Shown here: piece after piece, positions 3,539-21,061 of the stretch | How positions within the stretch are numbered: the stretch's first letter is position 1 | Layout of the letters: every line of letters starts with the position of its first letter | Assembly (NCBI GenBank): GCA_044227705.1 | Contig: JBGAWE010000045.1 | Location: forward strand, 1-24,582 | Length of the DNA stretch: 24,582 nt | Direction of reading: 5' to 3' | DNA from: Saprospiraceae bacterium | Lineage (GTDB): Bacteria; Bacteroidota; Bacteroidia; Chitinophagales; Saprospiraceae | The notes under the pieces: generated by a model | Told to the model about the DNA's origin: nothing | The model's database searches: none | Seen by the model: the letters and a program-made list of their open reading frames with translations, nothing else | Made by a program: the position numbers and the translations under genes

Positions 3539-3976
3539 TCACTCCATCGGGGTGCCGACGGGGATGCTGTCGCGCAAGTCCTGCCTGCCGAATTCGAGGT
3601 GGAAAAACGTCTTGCGCAGCTCGAAGTCCAGCACGAGGAGGCTGTCGGTAAGCATCGTGATGGTCAGGTCGAGGCCCTCGACACCCTCGGGTTTTTGGGT
3701 CAAAACGTCGTTTTTAATGGAAAAATCCATCGGCACCTCCGTAAAGTTGGGGTCGGGCAGGGGCAGGTTGGACTTCATCCTTTTCCCCTGAAAGAAGAGG
3801 TAGGCCCCATCGAACGCGGGCGACTCGACTCCGTCGCGGGTGCCCGACTGGATGAACCAGCGGCCCTCGAGGAGCTTCGGGTTGATCCTCGGCTCGTCGC
3901 CACAGGCGGCGACTGCAAGCAGTAAAATTGCCGGGAGCAGTGCAGTTTTTCTCAAAGACATGGCCGGGTTCGACAT
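3539..3976 (-). CDS. small lipoprotein of unknown function (signal peptide plus lipobox)
   Basis: The ATG at 3976 abuts the cas6 stop (TAG|ATG on the minus strand); there is an alternative ATG at 3961. MSLRKTALLPAILLLAVAAC has a positive n-region, hydrophobic core and lipobox V-A-A-C. The rest is hydrophilic (..LLEGRWFIQSGTRDG.. is lipocalin-like). No recognised family. Confidence 0.5.
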   Translation of the reverse strand: MSNPAMSLRKTALLPAILLLAVAACGDEPRINPKLLEGRWFIQSGTRDGVESPAFDGAYLFFQGKRMKSNLPLPDPNFTEVPMDFSIKNDVLTQKPEGVEGLDLTITMLTDSLLVLDFELRKTFFHLEFGRQDLRDSIPVGTPME

Positions 3977-4849
3977 CTATGTCGCCGGGTGCGGCGGCGT
4001 CTGGTGGCCTCGCTCGCCGCTGGGGGTGACGGGGCCGATGGGCTTCTTGACCTTCGCCTCGGGAAGCTCGACGAAGCCGAAGCCGAGGTGGCCGTGCTCG
4101 CCGAAGCCGCTGTGATAGGCGAAGTCCATGAGGAGGGGCGGCATGGAGACCTCGAATTCATAGACGAAGCCGCGCACCTGCGTCAGCCCCTCGGCGTTCG
4201 GCTTGAGGTGGATGAGGCGGCTCTTGGGCTGCGCCCGTAGTTGGAAAGACATCGGGAAAGAGGCGTCGAGCAGCCCCTCGGCATTGAGCGCGCGGTTGCG
4301 GTGGGCGGATTTGTACTTGCGGATGAGGTGGGTGAAAAAGGCCACGTCGTACTGCTCCGCGTCGGGCAGCGGGTAGGGGGTGCCGCTGGGCGCGTCCTCC
4401 ACGTCGCTGATGGAGATGGGCGAGGCGACACGGAAGGTCATCGTGTCCTTCATGTTGACCTTCGGCATGACCTGCCAGTGCTTCACCTCAAAATAGGCCG
4501 GGCGGCCCTCGAAAGTGCCGAGCTGGAGCGGGTATTGGCGGAAAAGGTGGACAAGTTGCTGCTCGAACTGCTGCCCGAGCCAGAAGCTCAAAGTGAGCTT
4601 GACCTGGTTGCCGAGCAGCCGGAACTCCTGCTTGGCCTGGTCCATTTCATATGGGTATATGGCAAGCGGCGAGAAGGTGAAGAGCTTGAAATCCTTTGCT
4701 GCGAGGTCGAAGCCGAGCTGCTGCACGTGGGCCGCCAATTCCGCCCCGCCTTTTGCGAGGACGCCGAAGACCCAACTCGACAGTTCACTTTGGTAGTTGA
4801 TGGGGATGATGGTCCCTCTTTGACAGGTTAGGCTGAATTGGATGCGCAT
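3977..4849 (-). CDS. cas6: CRISPR-associated endoribonuclease Cas6 family protein (orphan: no array or other cas genes in the window)
   Basis: 290-aa ORF with a true ATG (4849). The N-terminal ..TIIPINYQSELSSWVFGVLAKGGAELAAHVQQL..KDFKLFTFSPL aligns with the Cas6 N-terminal ferredoxin-fold signature (P. furiosus Cas6 FKVPYNHQYYLQGLIYNAI..ELATYLHEV..KLFTYSLF). The C-terminal ..LLMDFAYHSGFGEHGHLGFGFVEL is the Cas6 glycine-rich loop GhGxxxxxGhG (PfCas6 [23 protein letters not shown]). The internal ..MTFRVASPISI.. resembles the second RRM ('vtF.SPt'). Confidence 0.65.
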   Translation of the reverse strand: MRIQFSLTCQRGTIIPINYQSELSSWVFGVLAKGGAELAAHVQQLGFDLAAKDFKLFTFSPLAIYPYEMDQAKQEFRLLGNQVKLTLSFWLGQQFEQQLVHLFRQYPLQLGTFEGRPAYFEVKHWQVMPKVNMKDTMTFRVASPISISDVEDAPSGTPYPLPDAEQYDVAFFTHLIRKYKSAHRNRALNAEGLLDASFPMSFQLRAQPKSRLIHLKPNAEGLTQVRGFVYEFEVSMPPLLMDFAYHSGFGEHGHLGFGFVELPEAKVKKPIGPVTPSGERGHQTPPHPAT

Positions 4850-5263
4850 AGTGGCTGACAGCGATTAAAAACAGATTATGTGTCTAAAACAGAACGGTTC
4901 AATTTGGGCGAAAAATAGAAAGGCCGGCCGTCCCATCAAACAATTTGCGTGTTTCTCCTGAAAAACGTGCCGAAAAAGGCGCGATTTGGTCGCCCGTTGT
5001 TCGGTGTATCGCGGATTTGGTGGCGGCTGGTCGGCATTTGGCCCCTGTCGGCGGAGACCGGACCCAATTTTACGACCGGGATTGCCCCCGCGTTTGGAAT
5101 CCCTTTTTATCTATGCCGGAGATTTCCGCTCGATTGTTCTGCGGAGGCCCGCGACGGGCAACTTCCCCGAAAAATTTTCCGAAAAAACAGGCAGCCCATG
5201 CGCCCGGCAAAGGCTCTTCCGGGACGGCCTCAATCCTTTTTTCCACCCACCAACTTGTCGTAC

Positions 5264-6070
5264 ATGCGCAAATTCTACGTTCCAATTTTCCTGACGACCG
5301 CCTTTCTTCTCGGGGCAAGACTGACCGGCCAGACCCTCGAACCCGCCTCGTCGCCCATCTCGGGCAAGCCCATCTACCTCGACGGCAAACAGCAGCGGCA
5401 CCAAATCTCGCCGACGGACTTCACGCAGACTTTCTATCTCGAAAAGCTCTTGCCGGGCGAGAGCTATGAGCTGGTATTCGGCGATGAGGACGGGTTGAAA
5501 GGCTGCGTCCCGAAAGTCTCCGCGCCCGACGGCGATGCCAAGCTTGCGCCGACTACCGACGGGAAAACGGTCTACTTCGTCCCAAAATCGGCCAAAATCA
5601 GGCTCAACCTGACCTATTGCGCCGACCAGGAGCTGCCGAAGGAGCACTGGTTGAGCCTCGTCCTGATGACCGGCACGAAGTCGAACATCAAGGACTTGCT
5701 CGCAACGCTGCAGGTCGAGGGCGGCTACACGGCCGAGGACCTTGTCCGCGAGGTCATCATCGGGGGCGACTGTTTCGACATATCGAACGTCACCTATCAG
5801 GGGTCGCCCGTGCAAATCGGGAAGTTCTCGCAGGGCATCACTAACGTGGGCCTCATCGAGGGCGCCATCCTCGCCACCGGCCCCATCGACGTGGCCGTTG
5901 GGCCAAACGACCAGAACGGCGCAGGATCGGCCGTCGGCGGGGCGGGCAACGACGCCGACCTCGCCCAACTGGCGGGCGGCGGCTCCATCTTCGACCTGTG
6001 CGACATCGAGTTCGACTTCCGGCCCACCGAGTCGCCACTGTCTTTAAATTCCGTCTTTGCGTCAGAGTAA
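5264..6070 (+). CDS. N-terminal segment of a giant T9SS adhesin (signal peptide plus conserved N-terminal domain), ended by an in-frame TAA; the same frame continues into 6071..12043
   Basis: ATG at 5264 gives MRKFYVPIFLTTAFLLGARLTGQ, a signal peptide. The track ORF 4949.. starts at an upstream GTG. The domain ends ..DIEFDFRPTESPLSLNSVFASE then TAA at 6068-6070. The following codons in the same frame read YCEYVNSTFNDRFGFFISGPG.., so a conserved ..FASEEY.EYV.S.FND.FGFF.. block is split. Confidence 0.65.
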   Translation: MRKFYVPIFLTTAFLLGARLTGQTLEPASSPISGKPIYLDGKQQRHQISPTDFTQTFYLEKLLPGESYELVFGDEDGLKGCVPKVSAPDGDAKLAPTTDGKTVYFVPKSAKIRLNLTYCADQELPKEHWLSLVLMTGTKSNIKDLLATLQVEGGYTAEDLVREVIIGGDCFDISNVTYQGSPVQIGKFSQGITNVGLIEGAILATGPIDVAVGPNDQNGAGSAVGGAGNDADLAQLAGGGSIFDLCDIEFDFRPTESPLSLNSVFASE

Positions 6071-6196
6071 TACTGCGAGTACGTCAACTCGACCTTCAAC
6101 GACCGCTTCGGCTTCTTCATCAGCGGCCCCGGCATCGGCGGGCCGTTCAGCGGCGGCGCGGCCAACCTCGCCGTCCTGCCCGGCGGCGGCACCTAT

Positions 6197-9100
6197 GTGG
6201 GCATCAACACCGTCAACCATCTATTGAACACGGGCTATTTCCGCAACAACCAGCCCGCCACCGCCAACAACTGCACCCCGCTGCCGGCAGCCGGGGCATC
6301 TGCCAACGAGCTTCAGTTCGACGGGCTGACCACCGTTTTGACGGCCGTGGCGACCGTCATCCCCTGCTCGACGTACCATATCAAACTGAAGATCGGGGAC
6401 GTGGGCGACGGTGTATTCGATTCGGCCGTCTTTCTGAAGGCCGGCTCGTTCGACGGCGGCGGCAACGCCTCGCTCTCGCTCGAGGTGGCCGGCAACCCCG
6501 ACGACGACACCGCCACCGAAGGCTGCGAGAACGCCAAGTTCATTTTCACCCGCTCCGGCACCTCCCTCAACCTGCCGGTCGTGGTCAACTACACCATCAG
6601 CGGCACCGCCACCTCGGGTGCCGACTATGCGCCCATTCCTGGCTCCATTCTCATCCCGGCGGGGCAGACGATGGCGATGATCCCCGTCAACGTCATCAAC
6701 GACGGCATCGCCGAGAGCGTCGAGAACCTGCGCATCAAGCTGCTCCACCCGTGCTCATGCTCCGAGCCGTACATCGACCTGTTCATCGAGGACTACAACC
6801 CGATGATACTCATGTCGGACACCGTCCAGCAATGCGGCCCCGGCGTGGTCAACATCGAGCCGACGGTCACTTACGGCGTCGAGCCGTATACCTACAATTG
6901 GAACACGGGCCAGAACACGCCGAACATCTCGCCCTTTGTCAATGTCTCGCAGAACTACACACTGACTGTCACCGACTTCTGCGGGAAGACAAAGTCCATC
7001 AAGACCTACGTCAACGTCTACCCGCCTCCGAAAGCGACTGGCGGCGGGCAGGCCTTTCTCTGCAACGGAACCGGAACGGCCAACCTGACCATCAACTTCT
7101 CCGGCGGCGGCCCGTGGACGTTCACCTACAGCTACAACGGGGTCATTGAGGACCCGATCGGGCCGATCTACACGTCGCCGTACATCCTGACCGTAGACCA
7201 ACCGGGCATTTATGCGCTCGTCGACTGCACCAATGAGGAGGGCTGCGACGGGGCGGCCGTCGGGGTCTTCACCGTGCTATCCGTCGATATGAGCATCACG
7301 GGCATCGTCACCGATGTACTCTGCGGAAGCTCCACCAACGGCTCCATCAACACGACCGTGACTGGCGGCTCGCCTGCCTATACCTACAAATGGACGCCGG
7401 TCTTGGGCAACATCGCTGACCCCGTCAACCTTGGGGCAGGAACCTACACCGTTACCGTCACCGACAGCCACCAATGCACGGCGACGAACTCTTTCACCAT
7501 AAAACCGGGGACAATCCTGACGGCCACGCCGTCGAACATCGTGACTGCCGATTGCGCCCACCCGACGGGCGGCGGTGCGACTGCGAACGTGACGGGCGGA
7601 CAGCCGGGCTACACTTATTTATGGTCAAATGGCGCGTCGTCGAACCCGCTCGTCAACGTCGGGCCGGGCAACGTGACCGTCACCATTACCGACGCGCAGG
7701 GCTGCACGGTGGCCATGACCGTCGCGATTCCGGGCGATTTCGCGCCGCCGACGGCTAATGCCGCGGCGAACGGGCAAATCACCTGTCAAAACCAGAACGT
7801 CCCGATGAGCGGCGCGGGCAGCTCGAGCGGGCCGAACATCTCCTATCAATGGACGACCGTCGGCGGCGCGTTCAGCGGGCCGACCGATTTGCTCAACGCG
7901 ATTGCCGTCGCGCCGGGCCAGTATTCCATCGTTGTTACGGACAGCAACAACGGTTGCACGGCCACAAAATCGGTCGACATCACGGCCAGTGCCGACATCC
8001 CGGCGGCCAACGCCTCGGCGCCCGACCCGCTCACCTGCACCGTATCGACGGTCGGCCTCTCGGGCGCGGGGACGGCGACCGGCCCCGGCATCACCTATCA
8101 GTGGAGCGGCCCCGGCCTGGCGGGCGACCCGAACTCGCTCAACCCGTCGGCCACCGCGCCCGGCACCTACACGCTCGTCGTAAGCGATGCGAACTCGGGC
8201 TGCACGAACACCTCGCAGGCCGTCGTCGACCTCGACAACACTTTGCCACAGGCGGTCATCGCGCAGCCGGGTATCCTCAACTGCACGAGCGCTTCCGTCA
8301 TTTTGAACGCCATCGGAACTTCGACCGGCCCGAATTTCACCTATCAATGGACGGGCGCAGGCCTCCAATCCGGCCAGACGACCCTCCAGCCGACCGTGAC
8401 GGCCGCGGGGACTTTCACCATCCTCGTGACGAACACAACGAACGGCTGCACGACAACCACCTCGACGACGGTCGGCGCGGACAACTCATTGCCGACAGCC
8501 GTCATCGCGCAGCCGACGACATTGACCTGCACGACGCAGCAGTTCTCGCTTGATGCGAGCGGCTCCTCTTTCGGTGGAAATTTCGACATCAACTGGACGA
8601 CAGTGGGCGGCAACTACCTCCTCGGCACCAACGGCCTCAACCCGACCATCAACGCACCGGGCCAATATGTTTTGACCATCACGAACCTTTCGAGCCAATG
8701 CACGGCGACTGCGAACGTGACCGTCGGGCAGAACATCGCCACGCCGGTGGCCGATGCCGGGCAGCCGCAGGAGCTGACCTGCGCCCTTCTCTCAGCCCAG
8801 ATCGGGACGGCGAGCAGCCCCAATTTGACTTATAACTGGAGCGGCGCGGGCCTTTCGAGCAACACGGTTTCCAACCCGACGGCCAGCCAGCAAGGCACCT
8901 ATTATTTGACGGTTACCGACACGGCCAATGGCTGCACTGCCGATGCCTCTGTCGTGATTTCTGAAAACAATACGGCTCCTCAAATCACCGTCGCGCCCGG
9001 TGGACAGCTGACATGCCAAGTGACTTCGATGGATTTGAGCGCCGCAGGAAGCTCGGCCGGACCGAACTTCCTCTATCAATGGACAGCCTCCAACGGCGGC

Positions 9101-12043
9101 ACCATCGACCTGGGCGACAAGACCCAGACGCCGACCATCAGCAGCCCGGGCACCTACTCGCTTTTGATAACCGACACAAACAACTCGTGCACGGCCACCG
9201 CCTCGACGACGGTCACGCAGAGCGCGGGCGTGCCGGTCATCGCCGCCGCGCCCGACGGTGTGATCTCATGTAAAAACCCGGACGTCATCATCGACGCGAC
9301 CGGCACTTCGACCGGTGCCTCCATCAGCTACGAATGGTCGACGACCAACGGCTTCATCGTCACCGGCGTGAACGACCTCCAACTGACGGTCAACGCGCCG
9401 GGCGACTACAAGCTGCTCGTTCAAAACACGAACAACGGCTGCTCCGCCACTTCAACAATCACCGTTGGCTCCGACCTCACGCCGCCCGCGGCAGAAGCTG
9501 GGCCGGGCGCGACGCTTTCCTGCGGCCAGTCTTCCGCCACCCTGGACGGGACCGGATCGAGTGCAGGGGCCAATTTCACCTACCAGTGGGCGGCCACGAA
9601 CGGCGGGACTTTCACTTCGAACTCGAACCTTACCGGCCTTTCGCCGACGGCGACCGCCGCCGGGACGTACACCATCGTTGTGACGAACGGGACGAACGGC
9701 TGCACTGCGAGCGACGACGTGATCATCAACCAGGCACCTGATGTGCCGGTGGCCGTCGTCGCGCCCGCTGCGACGCTGACGTGCGCGGTGACTTCCATTG
9801 ATTTGAGTGGAACCGGCTCCTCGACCGGCGCGGCCTATTCCTATCTCTGGACGACCCTGAACGGCACGATTTCCAATGGGAACACGTCGCTCGCGCCGAC
9901 CGTCACAAAGCCCGGCACCTATCAATTGGCGGTGACCGACAACGTGAAAGGCTGCACCTCGCTCGCCTCCGTCACCGTCGCGCAGGACACGAAGAAGCCC
10001 GATATCCAGGCAGGCCCGCCCGGTTTGCTCACCTGCATCGCCAGTCAGACCACGCTCACCGGCACGGTCACAGGGCCGGGCAACTTCACCTACCTCTGGA
10101 CGGGCGGCACCATCCAGTCGGGCGCGACGACCCTGACGCCGACCGTCACGGCAGCGGGGACGTACACCCTGCAAGTGACCGACCAGTCGAACGGATGCAC
10201 ATCGACAGCGACGACGACTGTCACCTCGAACATGGTCCTGCCGACCGCAGCCATCGAACCCCCCACCACCATCAACTGCAACTTCGCCACTGCCGAGCTT
10301 GACGCGACGGCATCGAGCACGGGCCAGTTCTCCTACAATTGGGCTGCGACAAATGGCGGCAAAATCGACGACTTGAGCAACCCGCTCGTCCCCATAGTCA
10401 GCACGGCAGGCACCTACAATTTGACAGTGACGAACAACCTCAACGGCTGCACAGCCACGGCCTCCGTCGTTGTCATCGAGGACAAGGTGCCGCCAACGGC
10501 CGTCATCGCTGCGCCCGGCCAATTGACCTGCGCTGTCCAAACTTTGACCTTGAGCGGCACCGGTTCGAGCGCGGGCGCGCCCGGTTTCACCTATCAATGG
10601 ACGACGGCAAACGGGAAAATTGACAACGGCGCAACGACCCTCTCGCCGACCATCTCGAAGCCGGGCGACTATAAACTCGTGGTGAAAAACACGTCGAACG
10701 GTTGCACGGCAACTGCCTCTGCGTCGGTCACGGCGAACACAACGGCCCCACTGGCCGTCGTCGGAACGCCGGGAGAACTGACTTGCACGAAGAAGACGGT
10801 TACGTTGAGCGGCGTCGGCTCGGCCTCGGGGCCGGGCATCACCTATTCGTGGGCGACGACGAACGGGAACATCACAACAGGGCCGACGACCCTCACGCCG
10901 GTGGTCGACAAAATCGGGACATACGTCCTCACGGTTTTTAACTCGAACAACGGCTGCTCCTCGACCGCTCAAGCGACCGTCGGGCAGAACATCGCGGCAC
11001 CGACCGTCGACGCCGGCAACCCCTCCGAACTGACCTGCGCCAACCCAACCGCCTCGCTCATCGGCACGGCCTCGCCGCAGACGAACGTCGCGTGGACAGC
11101 CCAGCCGGGCAACATCGTCAGCGGCGCGACAAGCCTCACGCCGACCGTCAACGCCGCCGGGACGTACACCATCACGGCAACAAGCACGGTGAACGGCTGC
11201 ACGGCGACCGACAAAGTCGTCATCACTGCGCAGACCAGCCAGCCGACCGATTTGCAGGTCAATTTGACCATCCCGAGCTGTCAGGGCGACGGAATCATTG
11301 CCTTCACTGGCGTTACGGGCGGAGTCGAGCCGTATGTCTACAGCATCGACGGGGGGAAAAACTGGTTCTCCGCTGCGCAGTTCGACAACGTGCTGCCCGG
11401 CCAGTACGACCTCTGGGTGCAGGACGTGAACGGCTGCAAGTACCACGAGCCGCTCGCGGTGCCGCAACCGGCCATCCCCGAGCTGACGATGGTGCCGGAA
11501 ATCCAGCTCAACTTCGGCGACAGCATCACGCTCGACGCGAAGCTCAACGCCGGGTTCCCGCTCAACCAAGTCGACACCATCATCTGGACGCCGACGACCG
11601 GCCTGACCTTCGCCGGCAACTCGGTCAACGCGCTGCTGCACCCGTCGGTCAAGCCGGTCAAAAACTCGACCTACAAAGTCACGCTGATCTCGGTCGCTGG
11701 CTGCCAGACGACAGCCTCCGTCAACATCAAGGTCGACCGCGACCCGCACGTCTACATCCCCAACGCCATCAGCCCGTGGAACGCGGAGGGGCTGAACGAC
11801 CAGCTCATCATCTTCGCAAACCCGGCGCAGGTGCTGGAAATCACGGCCTTCGAGATGTTCGACCGCTGGGGCGACAAGGTCTGGGCCGACTACGGCTTCC
11901 AGCCCAACGAACCGGCGCACGGCTGGTCGAGCGTCGTCCGCAACAAGCAGCTCAACCCTGGGGTTTACGTCTATTGGGCGAACATCAAGTTCATCGACAA
12001 CCGCGAGGTGCTCTACAAAGGCGACGTGACCATCGTCCGATAA
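6197..12043 (+). CDS. giant cell-surface adhesin with SprB-type repeats, about 13 tandem ~90-aa repeats and a T9SS type-B C-terminal domain (gliding-motility-associated CTD); the frame is open from 6071
   Basis: 1948-aa ORF (track start is the GTG at 6197; frame 2 has been open since the TAA at 6068-6070). SprB-type repeats: CGSSTNGSINTTVTGGSPAYTYKWTP..GTYTVTVTDSHQCTATNSF. Tandem units: ..LTC....GtGSS.GpN.tYqWT..nG.I......L.PTV...GtYtL.VTd..NGCT.T..v.V... The C-terminus YIPNAISPWNAEGLNDQLIIF..FEMFDRWGDKVW....GWSSVVRNKQLNPGVYVYWANIKF..GDVTIVR matches the TIGR04131-type T9SS CTD. Confidence 0.8.
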   Translation: MGINTVNHLLNTGYFRNNQPATANNCTPLPAAGASANELQFDGLTTVLTAVATVIPCSTYHIKLKIGDVGDGVFDSAVFLKAGSFDGGGNASLSLEVAGNPDDDTATEGCENAKFIFTRSGTSLNLPVVVNYTISGTATSGADYAPIPGSILIPAGQTMAMIPVNVINDGIAESVENLRIKLLHPCSCSEPYIDLFIEDYNPMILMSDTVQQCGPGVVNIEPTVTYGVEPYTYNWNTGQNTPNISPFVNVSQNYTLTVTDFCGKTKSIKTYVNVYPPPKATGGGQAFLCNGTGTANLTINFSGGGPWTFTYSYNGVIEDPIGPIYTSPYILTVDQPGIYALVDCTNEEGCDGAAVGVFTVLSVDMSITGIVTDVLCGSSTNGSINTTVTGGSPAYTYKWTPVLGNIADPVNLGAGTYTVTVTDSHQCTATNSFTIKPGTILTATPSNIVTADCAHPTGGGATANVTGGQPGYTYLWSNGASSNPLVNVGPGNVTVTITDAQGCTVAMTVAIPGDFAPPTANAAANGQITCQNQNVPMSGAGSSSGPNISYQWTTVGGAFSGPTDLLNAIAVAPGQYSIVVTDSNNGCTATKSVDITASADIPAANASAPDPLTCTVSTVGLSGAGTATGPGITYQWSGPGLAGDPNSLNPSATAPGTYTLVVSDANSGCTNTSQAVVDLDNTLPQAVIAQPGILNCTSASVILNAIGTSTGPNFTYQWTGAGLQSGQTTLQPTVTAAGTFTILVTNTTNGCTTTTSTTVGADNSLPTAVIAQPTTLTCTTQQFSLDASGSSFGGNFDINWTTVGGNYLLGTNGLNPTINAPGQYVLTITNLSSQCTATANVTVGQNIATPVADAGQPQELTCALLSAQIGTASSPNLTYNWSGAGLSSNTVSNPTASQQGTYYLTVTDTANGCTADASVVISENNTAPQITVAPGGQLTCQVTSMDLSAAGSSAGPNFLYQWTASNGGTIDLGDKTQTPTISSPGTYSLLITDTNNSCTATASTTVTQSAGVPVIAAAPDGVISCKNPDVIIDATGTSTGASISYEWSTTNGFIVTGVNDLQLTVNAPGDYKLLVQNTNNGCSATSTITVGSDLTPPAAEAGPGATLSCGQSSATLDGTGSSAGANFTYQWAATNGGTFTSNSNLTGLSPTATAAGTYTIVVTNGTNGCTASDDVIINQAPDVPVAVVAPAATLTCAVTSIDLSGTGSSTGAAYSYLWTTLNGTISNGNTSLAPTVTKPGTYQLAVTDNVKGCTSLASVTVAQDTKKPDIQAGPPGLLTCIASQTTLTGTVTGPGNFTYLWTGGTIQSGATTLTPTVTAAGTYTLQVTDQSNGCTSTATTTVTSNMVLPTAAIEPPTTINCNFATAELDATASSTGQFSYNWAATNGGKIDDLSNPLVPIVSTAGTYNLTVTNNLNGCTATASVVVIEDKVPPTAVIAAPGQLTCAVQTLTLSGTGSSAGAPGFTYQWTTANGKIDNGATTLSPTISKPGDYKLVVKNTSNGCTATASASVTANTTAPLAVVGTPGELTCTKKTVTLSGVGSASGPGITYSWATTNGNITTGPTTLTPVVDKIGTYVLTVFNSNNGCSSTAQATVGQNIAAPTVDAGNPSELTCANPTASLIGTASPQTNVAWTAQPGNIVSGATSLTPTVNAAGTYTITATSTVNGCTATDKVVITAQTSQPTDLQVNLTIPSCQGDGIIAFTGVTGGVEPYVYSIDGGKNWFSAAQFDNVLPGQYDLWVQDVNGCKYHEPLAVPQPAIPELTMVPEIQLNFGDSITLDAKLNAGFPLNQVDTIIWTPTTGLTFAGNSVNALLHPSVKPVKNSTYKVTLISVAGCQTTASVNIKVDRDPHVYIPNAISPWNAEGLNDQLIIFANPAQVLEITAFEMFDRWGDKVWADYGFQPNEPAHGWSSVVRNKQLNPGVYVYWANIKFIDNREVLYKGDVTIVR
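7740..11250 (+). repeat. array of about 13 imperfect tandem repeats of 255-285 bp (protein-coding, inside the adhesin gene)
   Basis: Recurring cores aacggctgcac(g/t)gc (NGCTA), tatcaatggac (YQWT) and ctgacctgc (LTC) at roughly 270-bp spacing. Identical 20-mers recur, e.g. accgtcgggcagaacatcgc at about 8720 and about 10977. Confidence 0.7.
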
Positions 12044-19570: not shown

Positions 19571-21061
19571 TCAATCGACCAGCGTGACGCGAAGCATGTT
19601 CGTCCGGTATTTTTTCTCGATGGGCATGGAGCCGGTGTTCACGATGATGTCGCCTGCTTTGATGAAACCGGCACTTTTCAGGATTTCGGTCGTATCGGAA
19701 ATGGTTTCGTCCGTCGTCGTGAACCGGTCGTAATAAAAGCACTGCACGCCCCAGCAAAGGTTGAGCGTTGCGAGCATGTGCGGCTGCTCGGAGAAGATGA
19801 AAATGGGGCAGTTCGGCCGGAAGCTCGACACCTTGAAGCCCGTGTAGCCGGAGGTCGTCATGCCGACAATACCTCGCGCCCCGATTTCCTCGGCGATTGC
19901 CCCTGCCTTGAAGCATACCATGTCGCTGTAATAGCTGCGCGACTTGGTGCTAGGCTTCGGCCGCCTCGAAGTGATGGCTTCGTGGACGTATTTCTCCGTC
20001 TCCTCCACAATCCTCGACATGTACTCGACCACTTTGACAGGGTGTTTGCCCGCCGCTGTCTCGCCCGAGAGCATCACGGCGTCGGCGCCGTCGAGGACGG
20101 CGTTGGCCACGTCGGTCGTCTCGGCTCGGGTGGGGGAGGGGTTGGTCATCATGCTCTCCATCATCTGCGTGGCCACGATGACCGGCCGCGCCCACTGCAT
20201 GCACTTATTGACGATCTCCTTTTGGACGTGCGGCAGTTTTTCGATGGGCATCTCCACCCCGAGATCGCCCCGGGCGACCATGATGGCGTTGGCGACCTTG
20301 ATGATGGAGTCGATGTTCTTGACGGCTTCCGGCTTCTCGATTTTGGCCAAAACCTTCGCGGTGTGCCCCACTGCCTGTACCCGATCGATTAGGTCCTGCA
20401 CGTCTTCCGCCCGGCGGACAAAGGAAAGCGCAATCCAATTGATGCTCGGCTGGGTGAATATGAACTCCAAATCAGCCAAGTCCTTCGGCGTGAGCGACGG
20501 CTGCGAGACGTTCGTGTCCGGAAGGTTGACCCCTTTTTTTGAGGAAAGGATCCCGCCGAACAACGTGACCATCCGCACCGTGTCCTTTTTGTTCGTCTCG
20601 ACAACTTCGAAAACGAGTTTCCCGTCGTCGACCATGACCTTTTCACCGACCTCAACGTCCATCGGGAAATGGTCGTAGCTCATGTAGATGCGCTCGCGGT
20701 TGCCCACGCACGGCTCGTTGACGAAGGTTATGACGTCGCCCTCTGCAAGCGGCAGCGCGTTGTTCTCGATCTCGCCGACACGCAGCTTCGGCCCTTGCAG
20801 GTCGGCGAGGATGCCGATGTGCGTGTTGTACTTCTCGTTGATGTAGTTGATGTGGTTGATGATGGCCAGCTTGTCGGCATGGCTTCCATGAGAGAAGTTG
20901 AGACGGAAGACATCGACCCCCGCCCGCACCAAGTCGAGCAGCGTCTCGTAGCTACTGCTGGCTGGGCCGATGGTGGCCACGATTTTCGTGTTCTGGCGAG
21001 TGGTGCGGAGCATGTTGCGCTGCATGAGGAGGCTGTCGTCAGCCTTTGGGTTCTGAATCAT
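19571..21061 (-). CDS. pyk: pyruvate kinase
   Basis: ..KIVATIGPASSSYETLLDLVRAGVDVFRLNFSHGSH.., ..MVARGDLGVEMP.., ..VIVATQMMESM.., ..MLSGETAAGKHP.. are canonical PK motifs. The real start is probably the internal ATG at about 21013 (MLRTTRQNTKIVATIGP). Confidence 0.9.
   Translation of the reverse strand: MIQNPKADDSLLMQRNMLRTTRQNTKIVATIGPASSSYETLLDLVRAGVDVFRLNFSHGSHADKLAIINHINYINEKYNTHIGILADLQGPKLRVGEIENNALPLAEGDVITFVNEPCVGNRERIYMSYDHFPMDVEVGEKVMVDDGKLVFEVVETNKKDTVRMVTLFGGILSSKKGVNLPDTNVSQPSLTPKDLADLEFIFTQPSINWIALSFVRRAEDVQDLIDRVQAVGHTAKVLAKIEKPEAVKNIDSIIKVANAIMVARGDLGVEMPIEKLPHVQKEIVNKCMQWARPVIVATQMMESMMTNPSPTRAETTDVANAVLDGADAVMLSGETAAGKHPVKVVEYMSRIVEETEKYVHEAITSRRPKPSTKSRSYYSDMVCFKAGAIAEEIGARGIVGMTTSGYTGFKVSSFRPNCPIFIFSEQPHMLATLNLCWGVQCFYYDRFTTTDETISDTTEILKSAGFIKAGDIIVNTGSMPIEKKYRTNMLRVTLVD

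Follow-up and report, generated by a model that had tools for sequence, protein, structure and literature searches.

The contig JBGAWE010000045.1 of Saprospiraceae bacterium (NCBI GenBank assembly GCA_044227705.1) carries a cas6-like gene at positions 3977 to 4849, whose product belongs to a discrete, slowly evolving clade that is under strong purifying selection. Judged from sequence comparison, the chance is about even that this product is a Cas6b that has been exapted, probably does not cleave, binds a site of repeat origin on the mRNA encoding it, and autoregulates a two-gene operon. A wider proposal is put forward more tentatively and falls somewhat short of an even chance: that a Cas6 was domesticated order-wide as a sequence-specific, non-cleaving RNA-binding regulator, its operator being a duplicated remnant of the 5' half of an ancestral CRISPR-array repeat, located on its own mRNA and probably on other cellular RNAs. 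The window, i.e. the whole stretch of DNA that was analyzed, is one entire contig of 24,582 bp, and statements on this genome cover that contig. The gene and the parts of its product that are needed first are located as follows.

Positions 3977..4849, minus strand: cas6-like gene, an intact open reading frame (ORF) of 290 codons with a Cas6 fold of two RNA recognition motifs (RRM), from a Saprospirales clade derived from type I-B Cas6b.
Positions 4070..4111, minus strand: glycine-rich loop, residues 247-260, SGFGEHGHLGFGFV.
Positions 3980..4063, minus strand: low-complexity C-terminal tail, residues 263-290, variable and not a conserved clade feature.

The original prediction, made from the letters of the DNA, had described a 290-amino-acid Cas6-family ORF with two Cas6 signatures. 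Translation, the Pfam model PF01881, PADLOC, and structure comparison by AlphaFold 2 (AF2) and Foldseek all confirmed it. The protein carries IIPINYQSEL near its N-terminus and GFGEHGHLGFGFV at residues 248-260, and is devoid of a signal peptide. It matched PF01881 (Cas_Cas6_C) with 63.6 bits (cutoff 23), and the PADLOC Cas6b model PDLC01782 over the full length (E 2.4e-40). The profile check proposed earlier gave a divided result, since the NCBIfam equivalog TIGR01877 (cas_cas6) reached 56.4 bits, narrowly below its cutoff of 58.65, and no equivalog-level call is licensed. The AF2 model was computed from 29 family members. It had a predicted local distance difference test score (pLDDT) of 77.6 and a predicted template modelling (TM) score (pTM) of 0.74, and consisted of two beta-alpha-beta-beta-alpha-beta units, i.e. 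a double ferredoxin/RRM fold. A Foldseek search with this model gave leading PDB matches that were all Cas6 (5yi6, 3ufc, 3qjj, 3i4h, 3pkm; best 5yi6, E 4e-13), with TM scores to solved Cas6 structures of up to 0.70. With a tandem ferredoxin/RRM fold, a glycine-rich loop, and significant PF01881 and PADLOC matches, the gene product is a real Cas6-fold protein of the Cas6 superfamily.

The loop of the window protein reads GFGEHGHLGFG and fits the Cas6 pattern G-phi-G-x-x-x-x-x-G-phi-G. Its residues G248, G250, E251, G256, F257, and G258 were invariant in 121 sequences, and its middle is fPH/hGH in the clade versus KNS in canonical relatives. The 28-amino-acid C-terminal extension noticed earlier is present in the window, but it turned out not to be a family feature: 87 of 120 homologue clusters lack it and are exactly 263 amino acids long, and the sequence is variable in members having one. 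In the AF2 model, the tail had a pLDDT below 50.

Genomic context was analyzed in the window and in 33 clade loci from other genomes, taken from NCBI, ENA, JGI, and Logan assemblies, some of them on contigs of 0.4-0.85 Mb. Flanks per side were up to 10 kb in the first 28 loci and 4 kb in the last five (L115-L119). In the 24.6 kb of the window, no CRISPR-like array was detected with Tandem Repeats Finder and a repeat finder, and no cas domain was found in any other large ORF, in agreement with the original prediction. The first 28 clade loci (470 kb) contained no array according to a k-mer array detector that was positive in 10 of 44 outgroup loci of at least 8 kb. Tblastn searches with Cas3, Cas8, Cas7, Cas5, Cas4, Cas1, and Cas2 from one outgroup operon retrieved nothing from these 28 loci and the window; the same queries matched 17 of 18 outgroup loci of at least 15 kb. 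For L115-L119, the gene tables of the source gave no cas family except Cas6, and no full-length repeat-like element was found. The operational marks of a cas gene, an adjoining array and/or other cas genes, were therefore missing from the window and from all 33 clade loci examined. The outgroup loci L029 and L032 show the type I-B arrangement, in which cas6 is the first gene of a cas6-cas8b-cas7-cas5-cas3-cas4-cas1-cas2 operon accompanied by an array of GGAATTGAAA(C/T) repeats, and no clade member does. Other flanking genes of the clade loci were ordinary housekeeping genes that varied between genomes. An array-like match in L008 (10255-10405), about 7 kb from the cas6-like gene, was rejected as CRISPR: a 48-nucleotide (nt) unit, TGTGCTACAAATATGCCGTTCCTACGGAACGAAAACGCTGGGATGGAA, is repeated there 3.1 times head-to-tail at the contig end without spacers.

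The extent of the clade was determined with a word-indexed search over 5.8 billion proteins, which returned more than 120 clusters (90% identity level) at 57-88% identity to the window protein. Every cluster named by its source came from Saprospiraceae, Lewinellaceae, Saprospirales or an unclassified Bacteroidota/Bacteroidetes metagenome-assembled genome (MAG). Further carriers found by a genome scan were MAGs labelled Saprospirales, Saprospiraceae, Lewinellaceae, Chitinophagales or Bacteroidota/Bacteroidetes bacterium. When 1.84 billion representatives at 50% identity were searched exhaustively with HMMER, the entire clade was one representative (570 bits). The next protein followed at 37% identity and 183 bits, and beyond it lay a continuum of matches of about 30% identity (714 representatives in total). 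The clade was not mentioned in the literature searched, which dealt with solo, orphan or exapted Cas6, Cas6 in Saprospiraceae, Cas6 autoregulation, and reviews of CRISPR evolution and exaptation.

Within the clade, about 80 columns were invariant across 29 sequences, including IPINYQSE, PYEMDQ..QEF, KHWQ, KSRLIHL, RGF, and GFGE...GFG, and many of the invariant residues were Arg or Lys. The ratio of nonsynonymous to synonymous substitution rates (dN/dS, Nei-Gojobori) was 0.01-0.09 in five clade pairs with unsaturated dS; most other pairs had more than 80% protein identity despite saturated synonymous sites. Compared in the same genome pairs, the Cas6-like protein and a neighbouring thiolase (acetyl-CoA acetyltransferase) had identities of, for example, 74.1/74.6, 87.1/86.7, 94.3/87.1, and 82.9/71.9%. 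The two values track each other, as expected for vertical descent. A thiolase gene lies within a few kb of the cas6-like gene in 14 loci (L004, L005, L009, L011-L013, L016, L019, L021-L025, L119), usually on the opposite strand. Beyond the gene pair described below, it is the sole partial synteny of the clade loci; a Macro-domain gene also recurs (L001, L119).

The catalytic triad was mapped by profile alignment to Pyrococcus furiosus Cas6 (PfCas6, also PfuCas6), and the following codons were assigned.

Positions 4766..4768, minus strand: codon of F28, at the position of the PfCas6 catalytic Tyr31; Phe in 119 of 121 clade members, Tyr in close outgroups.
Positions 4721..4723, minus strand: codon of Q43, at the position of the PfCas6 catalytic His46; Gln in 117 of 121 clade members, His (WLH motif) in all close outgroups.
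Positions 4685..4687, minus strand: codon of K55, at the position of PfCas6 Lys52; Lys or Arg in 121 of 121 clade members.

The window protein hence has F28, Q43, and K55 in place of the Tyr/His/Lys triad of the PfCas6 type, exactly as an earlier alignment by eye had read it. That alignment had also pointed to a His two residues before the lost one. H41 is indeed there in the window, but the column is not conserved (W 85, H 29, Y 7 of 121), and since H41 aligns with the W of the outgroup WLH motif, it does not represent a catalytic His that has moved. In the close outgroups, Y, H, and K stand in a gap-free region of the alignment, and the loop is a canonical GFGEKNSxGFG. In PfuCas6, the exchanges Y31A and H46A abolish detectable activity and K52A lowers activity 40-fold (PMC3652601); the clade has thus replaced the two most critical catalytic residues. 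Invariant residues gained in the clade are K123-H124-W125, H174, R177, K180, R211, H214, and R226.

The canonical outgroups were found in cas operons. P0121 (37% identity) is followed by Cas5b and Cas3b in a type I-B operon, and P0123 (32%) heads an operon of WYL, Cas3, large subunit, Cas7 (DevR), Cas5, Cas4, Cas1, and Cas2. The exception among near outgroups was P0122 (35% identity; L030/L031, 5906-6733), an orphan without cas genes within 6-10 kb. It has kept the Tyr/His/Lys triad, has no lipoprotein partner, and is preceded by a single TTTTAATTCG half-site ending 12 nt before the ATG; P0122 may be an evolutionary intermediate.

Downstream of the cas6-like gene, a second gene is coupled to it.

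Positions 3539..3976, minus strand: lipoprotein gene, immediately downstream of the cas6-like gene; signal peptide, lipobox Cys25, lipocalin-like eight-stranded beta-barrel.

Stop and start codons abut as TAG/ATG, as had been noted before, with CTA at 3977-3979 and CAT at 3974-3976. The NCBI call (P0270, 140 amino acids) uses an alternative start at 3961, 15 nt further on. The two genes probably share an operon. The conservation check suggested in the original prediction was carried out in both directions. A homologous lipoprotein gene (133-175 amino acids) was located 0-124 nt downstream on the same strand in every clade locus (33 of 33), being split by a frameshift in one nanopore MAG, and lipoprotein homologues taken as the starting point led to five places, each with a Cas6_C gene for 263 amino acids directly upstream. 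The lipoprotein family is narrow (41 clusters, all without names). Its lipobox Cys, C20 in the alignment, was invariant in 19 sequences and nearly invariant in 30. The AF2 model of the lipoprotein (pLDDT 81.2) had eight strands, with 4qrl, a lipocalin-like protein of Bacteroides uniformis, as the best PDB match, followed by lipocalins and fatty-acid-binding proteins; the Pfam match to Lipocalin_4 stayed below threshold (15.4 versus 22.4 bits). Signal peptide, lipobox Cys, and a predicted eight-stranded antiparallel barrel are those of a bacterial lipocalin-like lipoprotein. The partner evolves faster: its dN was about five times that of the Cas6-like protein, and median pairwise identity was 34% versus 75%.

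The region upstream of the cas6-like gene contains two further elements. The repeat-like tandem motif adds to the account given in the original prediction.

Positions 4863..4879, minus strand: tandem motif ATAATCT-gtt-TTTAATC, with half-site 1 at 4873-4879 and half-site 2 at 4863-4869, then GC; the motif ends 13 nt before the ATG.
Positions 4910..4940, minus strand: putative Bacteroidota-type promoter, with TTTG at 4937-4940, a 19-nt spacer, and TATTTTTC at 4910-4917.

Alignment of the upstream regions revealed the invariant blocks TAATCT and TTTAATC, 3-4 nt apart, amid variable sequence. In RNA form the tandem site is UUUAAUCUGUCUUUUAAUCACAA, with the core UUAAUC. The tandem pattern occurred a single time in the window (0 expected by chance) and was found at this place in the window and all 33 clade loci, always on the sense strand and once per locus save one extra copy in L026. 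The distance from motif end to ATG was 13.2 +/- 1.3 nt (range 10-16), and that from the motif to the -7 box was 39.7 +/- 10.2 nt (range 19-63). The latter box is conserved upstream in the clade loci as GTACTTTTCG/TAnnTTTG, with TTTG located 17-22 nt further upstream. The consensus of Bacteroidota sigma-A promoters is TTTG / TAnnTTTG. As the predicted promoter lies upstream of the motif, the motif would be transcribed as part of the 5' untranslated region (UTR). The leader RNA had no stable fold (less stable than 177 of 200 shuffles, z = +1.15), and a hairpin substrate in the leader was rejected on these grounds. The tandem was absent from 78 outgroup cas6 leaders.

Among 691 ORFs of the clade loci, TTAATC ended 10-16 nt before the ATG in 31 cases, of which 29 were cas6-like genes. 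The other two were one Lrp/AsnC gene in the related genomes L010 (minus strand, start about 2039) and L012 (minus strand, start 2057). Its half-site CTTTAATCATAC ends 13-14 nt before the ATG and does not differ from half-site 2 in the cas6-like leader of these genomes. With two matches versus about 0.9 expected by chance, the Lrp/AsnC gene was rejected as a further target with a half-site at this distance. The extra tandem of L026 (TAATCT...TTAATC, 7747-7763) is located ahead of a LytS kinase/LytTR operon (7844-9846). One sub-lineage, with L026, L115 (1141-2949), and L116-L118 (1078-3017), has genes for a LytS-type kinase and a LytTR regulator directly upstream on the strand of the cas6-like gene. 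A LytTR operator shared with this upstream kinase operon was considered and rejected, the second copy being confined to L026 and absent in L115-L118.

The leader half-site resembles the 5' segment of the outgroup repeat CTTTTAATCGCACC...GGAATTGAAAT. One repeat family, CT(T/G)TTAATCGCACCAnnnTGGAATTGAAA(T/C), comprises eight of ten outgroup arrays as well as the first repeat after cas2 in L032, which is broken; the outgroup arrays run in the orientation of the cas operon. The leader half-site and its flank, TTTAATCACAA, were turned into a position weight model, which was tested against shuffles. The best match of the model was at repeat nt 3-13 on the sense strand in five of nine repeats (shuffle p 0.002-0.019). 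The remaining four had one or two core mismatches, and unrelated repeats scored negative. Over 10 nt, the window sequence TTTTAATCGC agrees fully with the repeats of L094 and L097. The outgroup repeats are mutually related, and the match therefore counts as about one observation, with p about 0.01. The cleavage and handle part of the repeat, GGAATTGAAA, was absent from the leader, and in the window and 536 kb of clade loci it gave only chance-level matches (6 mismatches). Carte et al. (2008) reportedly found PfCas6 to depend for binding primarily on the repeat's 5' region. Repeats of type I-B have no structure; PfCas6 wraps unstructured repeat RNA, cutting it 8 nt from the 3' end (PMC5965381). 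A further, array-like element near an outgroup Cas6b, in L066 (16292-16636), consists of five copies of a 38-nt unit, CCTGTAAATCCTGTAAATCCTGTCTCAAACAAAAAAAA, at a spacing of 76-77 nt and is unlike the I-B repeat family.

The following course of events is proposed. A Saprospirales ancestor would have taken a type I-B endoribonuclease for processing of CRISPR RNA (crRNA) out of its cas operon. The protein would have kept its fold of two RRMs, the glycine-rich loop, and basic RNA-binding residues, with the catalytic Tyr changed to Phe and the His to Gln. From then on, descent would have been vertical and evolution housekeeping-like in rate, the gene always leading a two-gene operon with the lipocalin-like lipoprotein. 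The protein may still recognize the single-stranded 5' segment of the old repeat (UUUAAUC), and its binding site would be the two tandem copies of UUUAAUC type that lie in the 5' UTR of its mRNA, about 13 nt ahead of the AUG. The leader lacks the 3' part of the repeat, which contains the cleavage site and the 8-nt handle, and the protein would hence bind it, possibly as a dimer, and leave it uncut. Once bound, it would cover the initiation region and exert feedback on translation of the cas6-like/lipoprotein operon. Three elements of this scheme, namely binding of the leader RNA by the Cas6-like protein, loss of its cleavage activity, and autoregulation of the operon, we infer from sequence comparison.

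Several points weigh against this scheme. SsoCas6, which has no active-site His, still cleaves via a network of basic residues (PMC3652601), and in HvoCas6b the exchange H41A merely reduces crRNA levels, with similar reports for other Cas6b (PMC6546412), so loss of the canonical His is no proof of loss of activity. The clade-specific residues K123-H124-W125, H174, R211, and H214 could, to judge by their invariance, form an alternative active site. The match between motif and repeat comprises a core of 7-11 nt and one repeat family, in effect a single observation with p about 0.01. As a direct repeat in a register of about 11 nt, with a second copy at the LytS/LytTR operon of L026, the motif could also be a DNA operator. 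The scans for arrays and cas genes span the flanks of the gene, and distant arrays are possible. Between a cytoplasmic RNA-binding protein and a lipoprotein predicted to be secreted, no functional link is obvious, and autoregulation alone does not explain such strong conservation.

The original prediction had named two possibilities, a repurposed Cas6 in a non-CRISPR context and a solo cas6 whose array lies elsewhere. The former is favoured by the discrete clade, the lack of cas genes and arrays in 33 loci, the coupled lipoprotein, and the fixed exchanges of Tyr to Phe and His to Gln. An ordinary stand-alone Cas6 acting in trans, which would process pre-crRNA for a type I-B or III system elsewhere via a non-canonical active site and would be next to the lipoprotein gene incidentally, is accordingly unlikely. 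It is true that type III systems often use Cas6 from other loci (PMC12669027), that Cas6 active sites are plastic and some enzymes without the His are active, and that the glycine-rich loop and Lys55 are retained; in addition, the window is a complete short contig and the scans of clade loci were confined to flanks. The nearest relatives, however, almost always have cas genes or arrays around them, and neither was seen around the gene in the 33 genomes. Tyr and His, which every close outgroup has kept, are both replaced clade-wide. Conservation is thiolase-like, with dN/dS of 0.01-0.09, whereas the canonical relatives are diversified (714 clusters at 50% identity). Action in trans also leaves the strict lipoprotein partner and the repeat-like leader motif unexplained. 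The loss of the catalytic residues and the lack of cas neighbours would also be expected of a decaying relic, i.e. a cas6 that remained when its CRISPR-Cas locus was lost and is drifting towards a pseudogene. The selection analysis refutes this explanation, to which hardly any probability is assigned: every locus has an intact ORF, dN/dS values are 0.01-0.09, about 80 columns show no variation in 29 sequences, and conservation is at thiolase level. The promoter and leader are conserved as well.

Two further explanations accept an exapted Cas6 fold and differ in its role. The protein might bind RNA with its target elsewhere, and the tandem TAATC might be a DNA operator or the site of another factor, e.g. 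a response regulator. We regard this as doubtful, although it has more to recommend it than action in trans. The motif is a direct repeat in a register of about one helical turn, the second copy in L026 precedes a LytS/LytTR operon, a two-component pair is located directly upstream in L026 and L115-L118, and the resemblance to the repeat is short. Yet the distance of the motif is fixed with respect to the start codon (13.2 +/- 1.3 nt) and not to the promoter box (19-63 nt), and the motif is always in sense orientation downstream of the predicted -7 box. The spacing of the half-sites varies by 1 nt, the motif is absent upstream of the kinase operon in L115-L118, and most clade loci have no adjacent two-component system. 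Moreover, the ancestral Cas6b substrate has in its 5' segment, in the correct orientation, a match to the half-site. The other explanation is reuse of the Cas6 fold in a non-RNA role tied to the lipoprotein, with the protein serving, for instance, an envelope or lipid-ligand pathway as cytoplasmic chaperone or sensor. It draws on the gene order with the lipocalin-like lipoprotein, which is strictly conserved in both directions, and is considered very improbable: the products are predicted to reside in different compartments (no signal peptide versus lipobox), hallmarks of RNA binding are kept (glycine-rich loop, many invariant Arg and Lys), and the dN of the partner is about five times higher, which is unusual for tightly interacting proteins.

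The other neighbours of the gene in the window, named in the original prediction, were all recovered, i.e. genes for a hexapeptide/gamma-carbonic anhydrase-like protein, a FIST protein, a histidine kinase, and a divergent SprB/PKD/CHU_C adhesin; the gamma-carbonic anhydrase-like, FIST, and kinase genes are not part of the conserved module. The window has a G+C content of about 60% and contains genes with sorting domains of the type IX secretion system (T9SS), SprB, and CHU_C, which together point to a member of the Bacteroidota with high G+C content. The giant adhesin gene (5264-12043, plus strand) encodes SprB, PKD, Calx-beta, and a CHU_C T9SS sorting domain, and it begins at 5264 with a good signal peptide. 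Its frame is interrupted once, by a stop at 6068-6070 (...SVFASE*YCEYVNSTF...), and then runs on to 12043; the stop could be a sequencing error, a mark of a pseudogene or a recoding event. An apparent match of P0244, a protein of 2,689 amino acids, with 15 stretches was rejected as an Ig/cadherin adhesin and an artefact of repeat summing. Inside the cas6-like coding sequence, a 26-nt imperfect direct repeat, CAGCCCCTCGGCGTTCGGCTTGAGGT, was found at 4184-4209 and 4271-4296 (second copy 77% identical, 87 nt apart); this two-copy family is probably due to chance or to similar peptide segments. An Rfam scan at gathering thresholds of the window and five loci gave only three tRNA matches, all in L001 and none near the gene pair. 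In L001 (18788-20792), a Ro60/TROVE-family gene adjoins an AAA_14/DUF4143 gene, followed by the three matches on the minus strand (20295-20367, 20564-20637, 20720-20792). Bacterial Ro60 genes often adjoin Y-RNA genes with tRNA-like modules, and the three matches may not all be ordinary tRNAs.

Among known systems, the type I-B Cas6b proteins (M. maripaludis, C. thermocellum, H. volcanii; P0121, P0123) are the nearest sequence relatives of the clade, with 30-37% identity. They share the two-RRM fold, a length of about 260 amino acids, the N-terminal MR..L..G..(I/L)P.NYQ, the K-LFTFS lysine, and the GFGE...GFG loop, and the 5' segment of their repeats resembles the leader half-site of the clade. 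Cas6b, however, heads cas operons beside arrays, which clade members never do, and keeps Tyr and His (WIY, WLH) where the clade has Phe and Gln. The Cas6b relatives are highly diversified, whereas the clade is one 50% cluster with a housekeeping-like rate and a fixed lipoprotein partner.

PH0350 of Pyrococcus horikoshii (PDB 3QJJ, 3QJL, 3QJP) and the P. furiosus Cas6 paralogue 3UFC also have the Cas6 fold, with TM scores of 0.59-0.70 to the clade model. PH0350 has been described as a homologue of Cas6 that is non-catalytic (PMC3902920), and the PDB lists it under the title 'One RAMP protein binding different RNA substrates'; with it there is a precedent for binding by a Cas6 that does not cut. 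Both proteins differ from the clade in being archaeal, in belonging to hosts with CRISPR-Cas, in acting on CRISPR repeats, and in having only about 17-18% identity to the window protein. For neither of them do we know of a conserved non-cas partner, order-wide vertical conservation or a site in its own leader.

Autogenous translational repressors, such as ribosomal proteins and the coat proteins of MS2 and PP7, bind the initiation region of their own mRNA and limit their own synthesis. Catalytically dead Csy4/Cas6f (dCsy4) has been engineered into a translational repressor that binds a hairpin. The ribosomal and coat-protein repressors have folds unrelated to Cas6, and dCsy4 is artificial and binds a hairpin, whereas the clade site is an unstructured tandem. 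By analogy, the clade protein would work most like PH0350 and the autogenous translational repressors. A conceptual parallel is offered by crlRNA, CreA, and ectopic or solitary repeats, in which degenerate stand-alone pieces of repeats located outside arrays serve gene regulation (10.1101/2023.03.03.530964, PMC9458426). These elements lie within CRISPR-cas loci and give rise to guide-like RNAs that act via Cascade or Cas9 by base-pairing with promoters. The clade differs from them in having only a duplicated 5' protein-binding segment, no spacer-like part, and no effector genes, and its proposed reader is a Cas6 on mRNA. The exaptations of CRISPR parts that are known to us, i.e. Tn7-CAST, type IV, Streptomyces Cas5-8/STAND, crlRNA/CreTA, and Cas1-solo in casposons, still use guides or effectors.

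Databases name clade members 'CRISPR-associated endoribonuclease Cas6', which would inflate counts of CRISPR-Cas systems in Saprospirales MAGs. If the proposal is true, the clade would provide a natural pair of a compact protein and a single-stranded RNA tag (UUUAAUC) that may bind without cutting and would be of interest for RNA tethering and translational control. Bacteroidota lack Shine-Dalgarno-driven initiation, and such a pair would be of practical interest especially in this phylum. The protein would also be the first natural stand-alone Cas6 recruited for post-transcriptional control in the host, independent of array, guide, and effector, and it would mean that the repeat-recognition module alone is reusable as a host RNA-binding protein.

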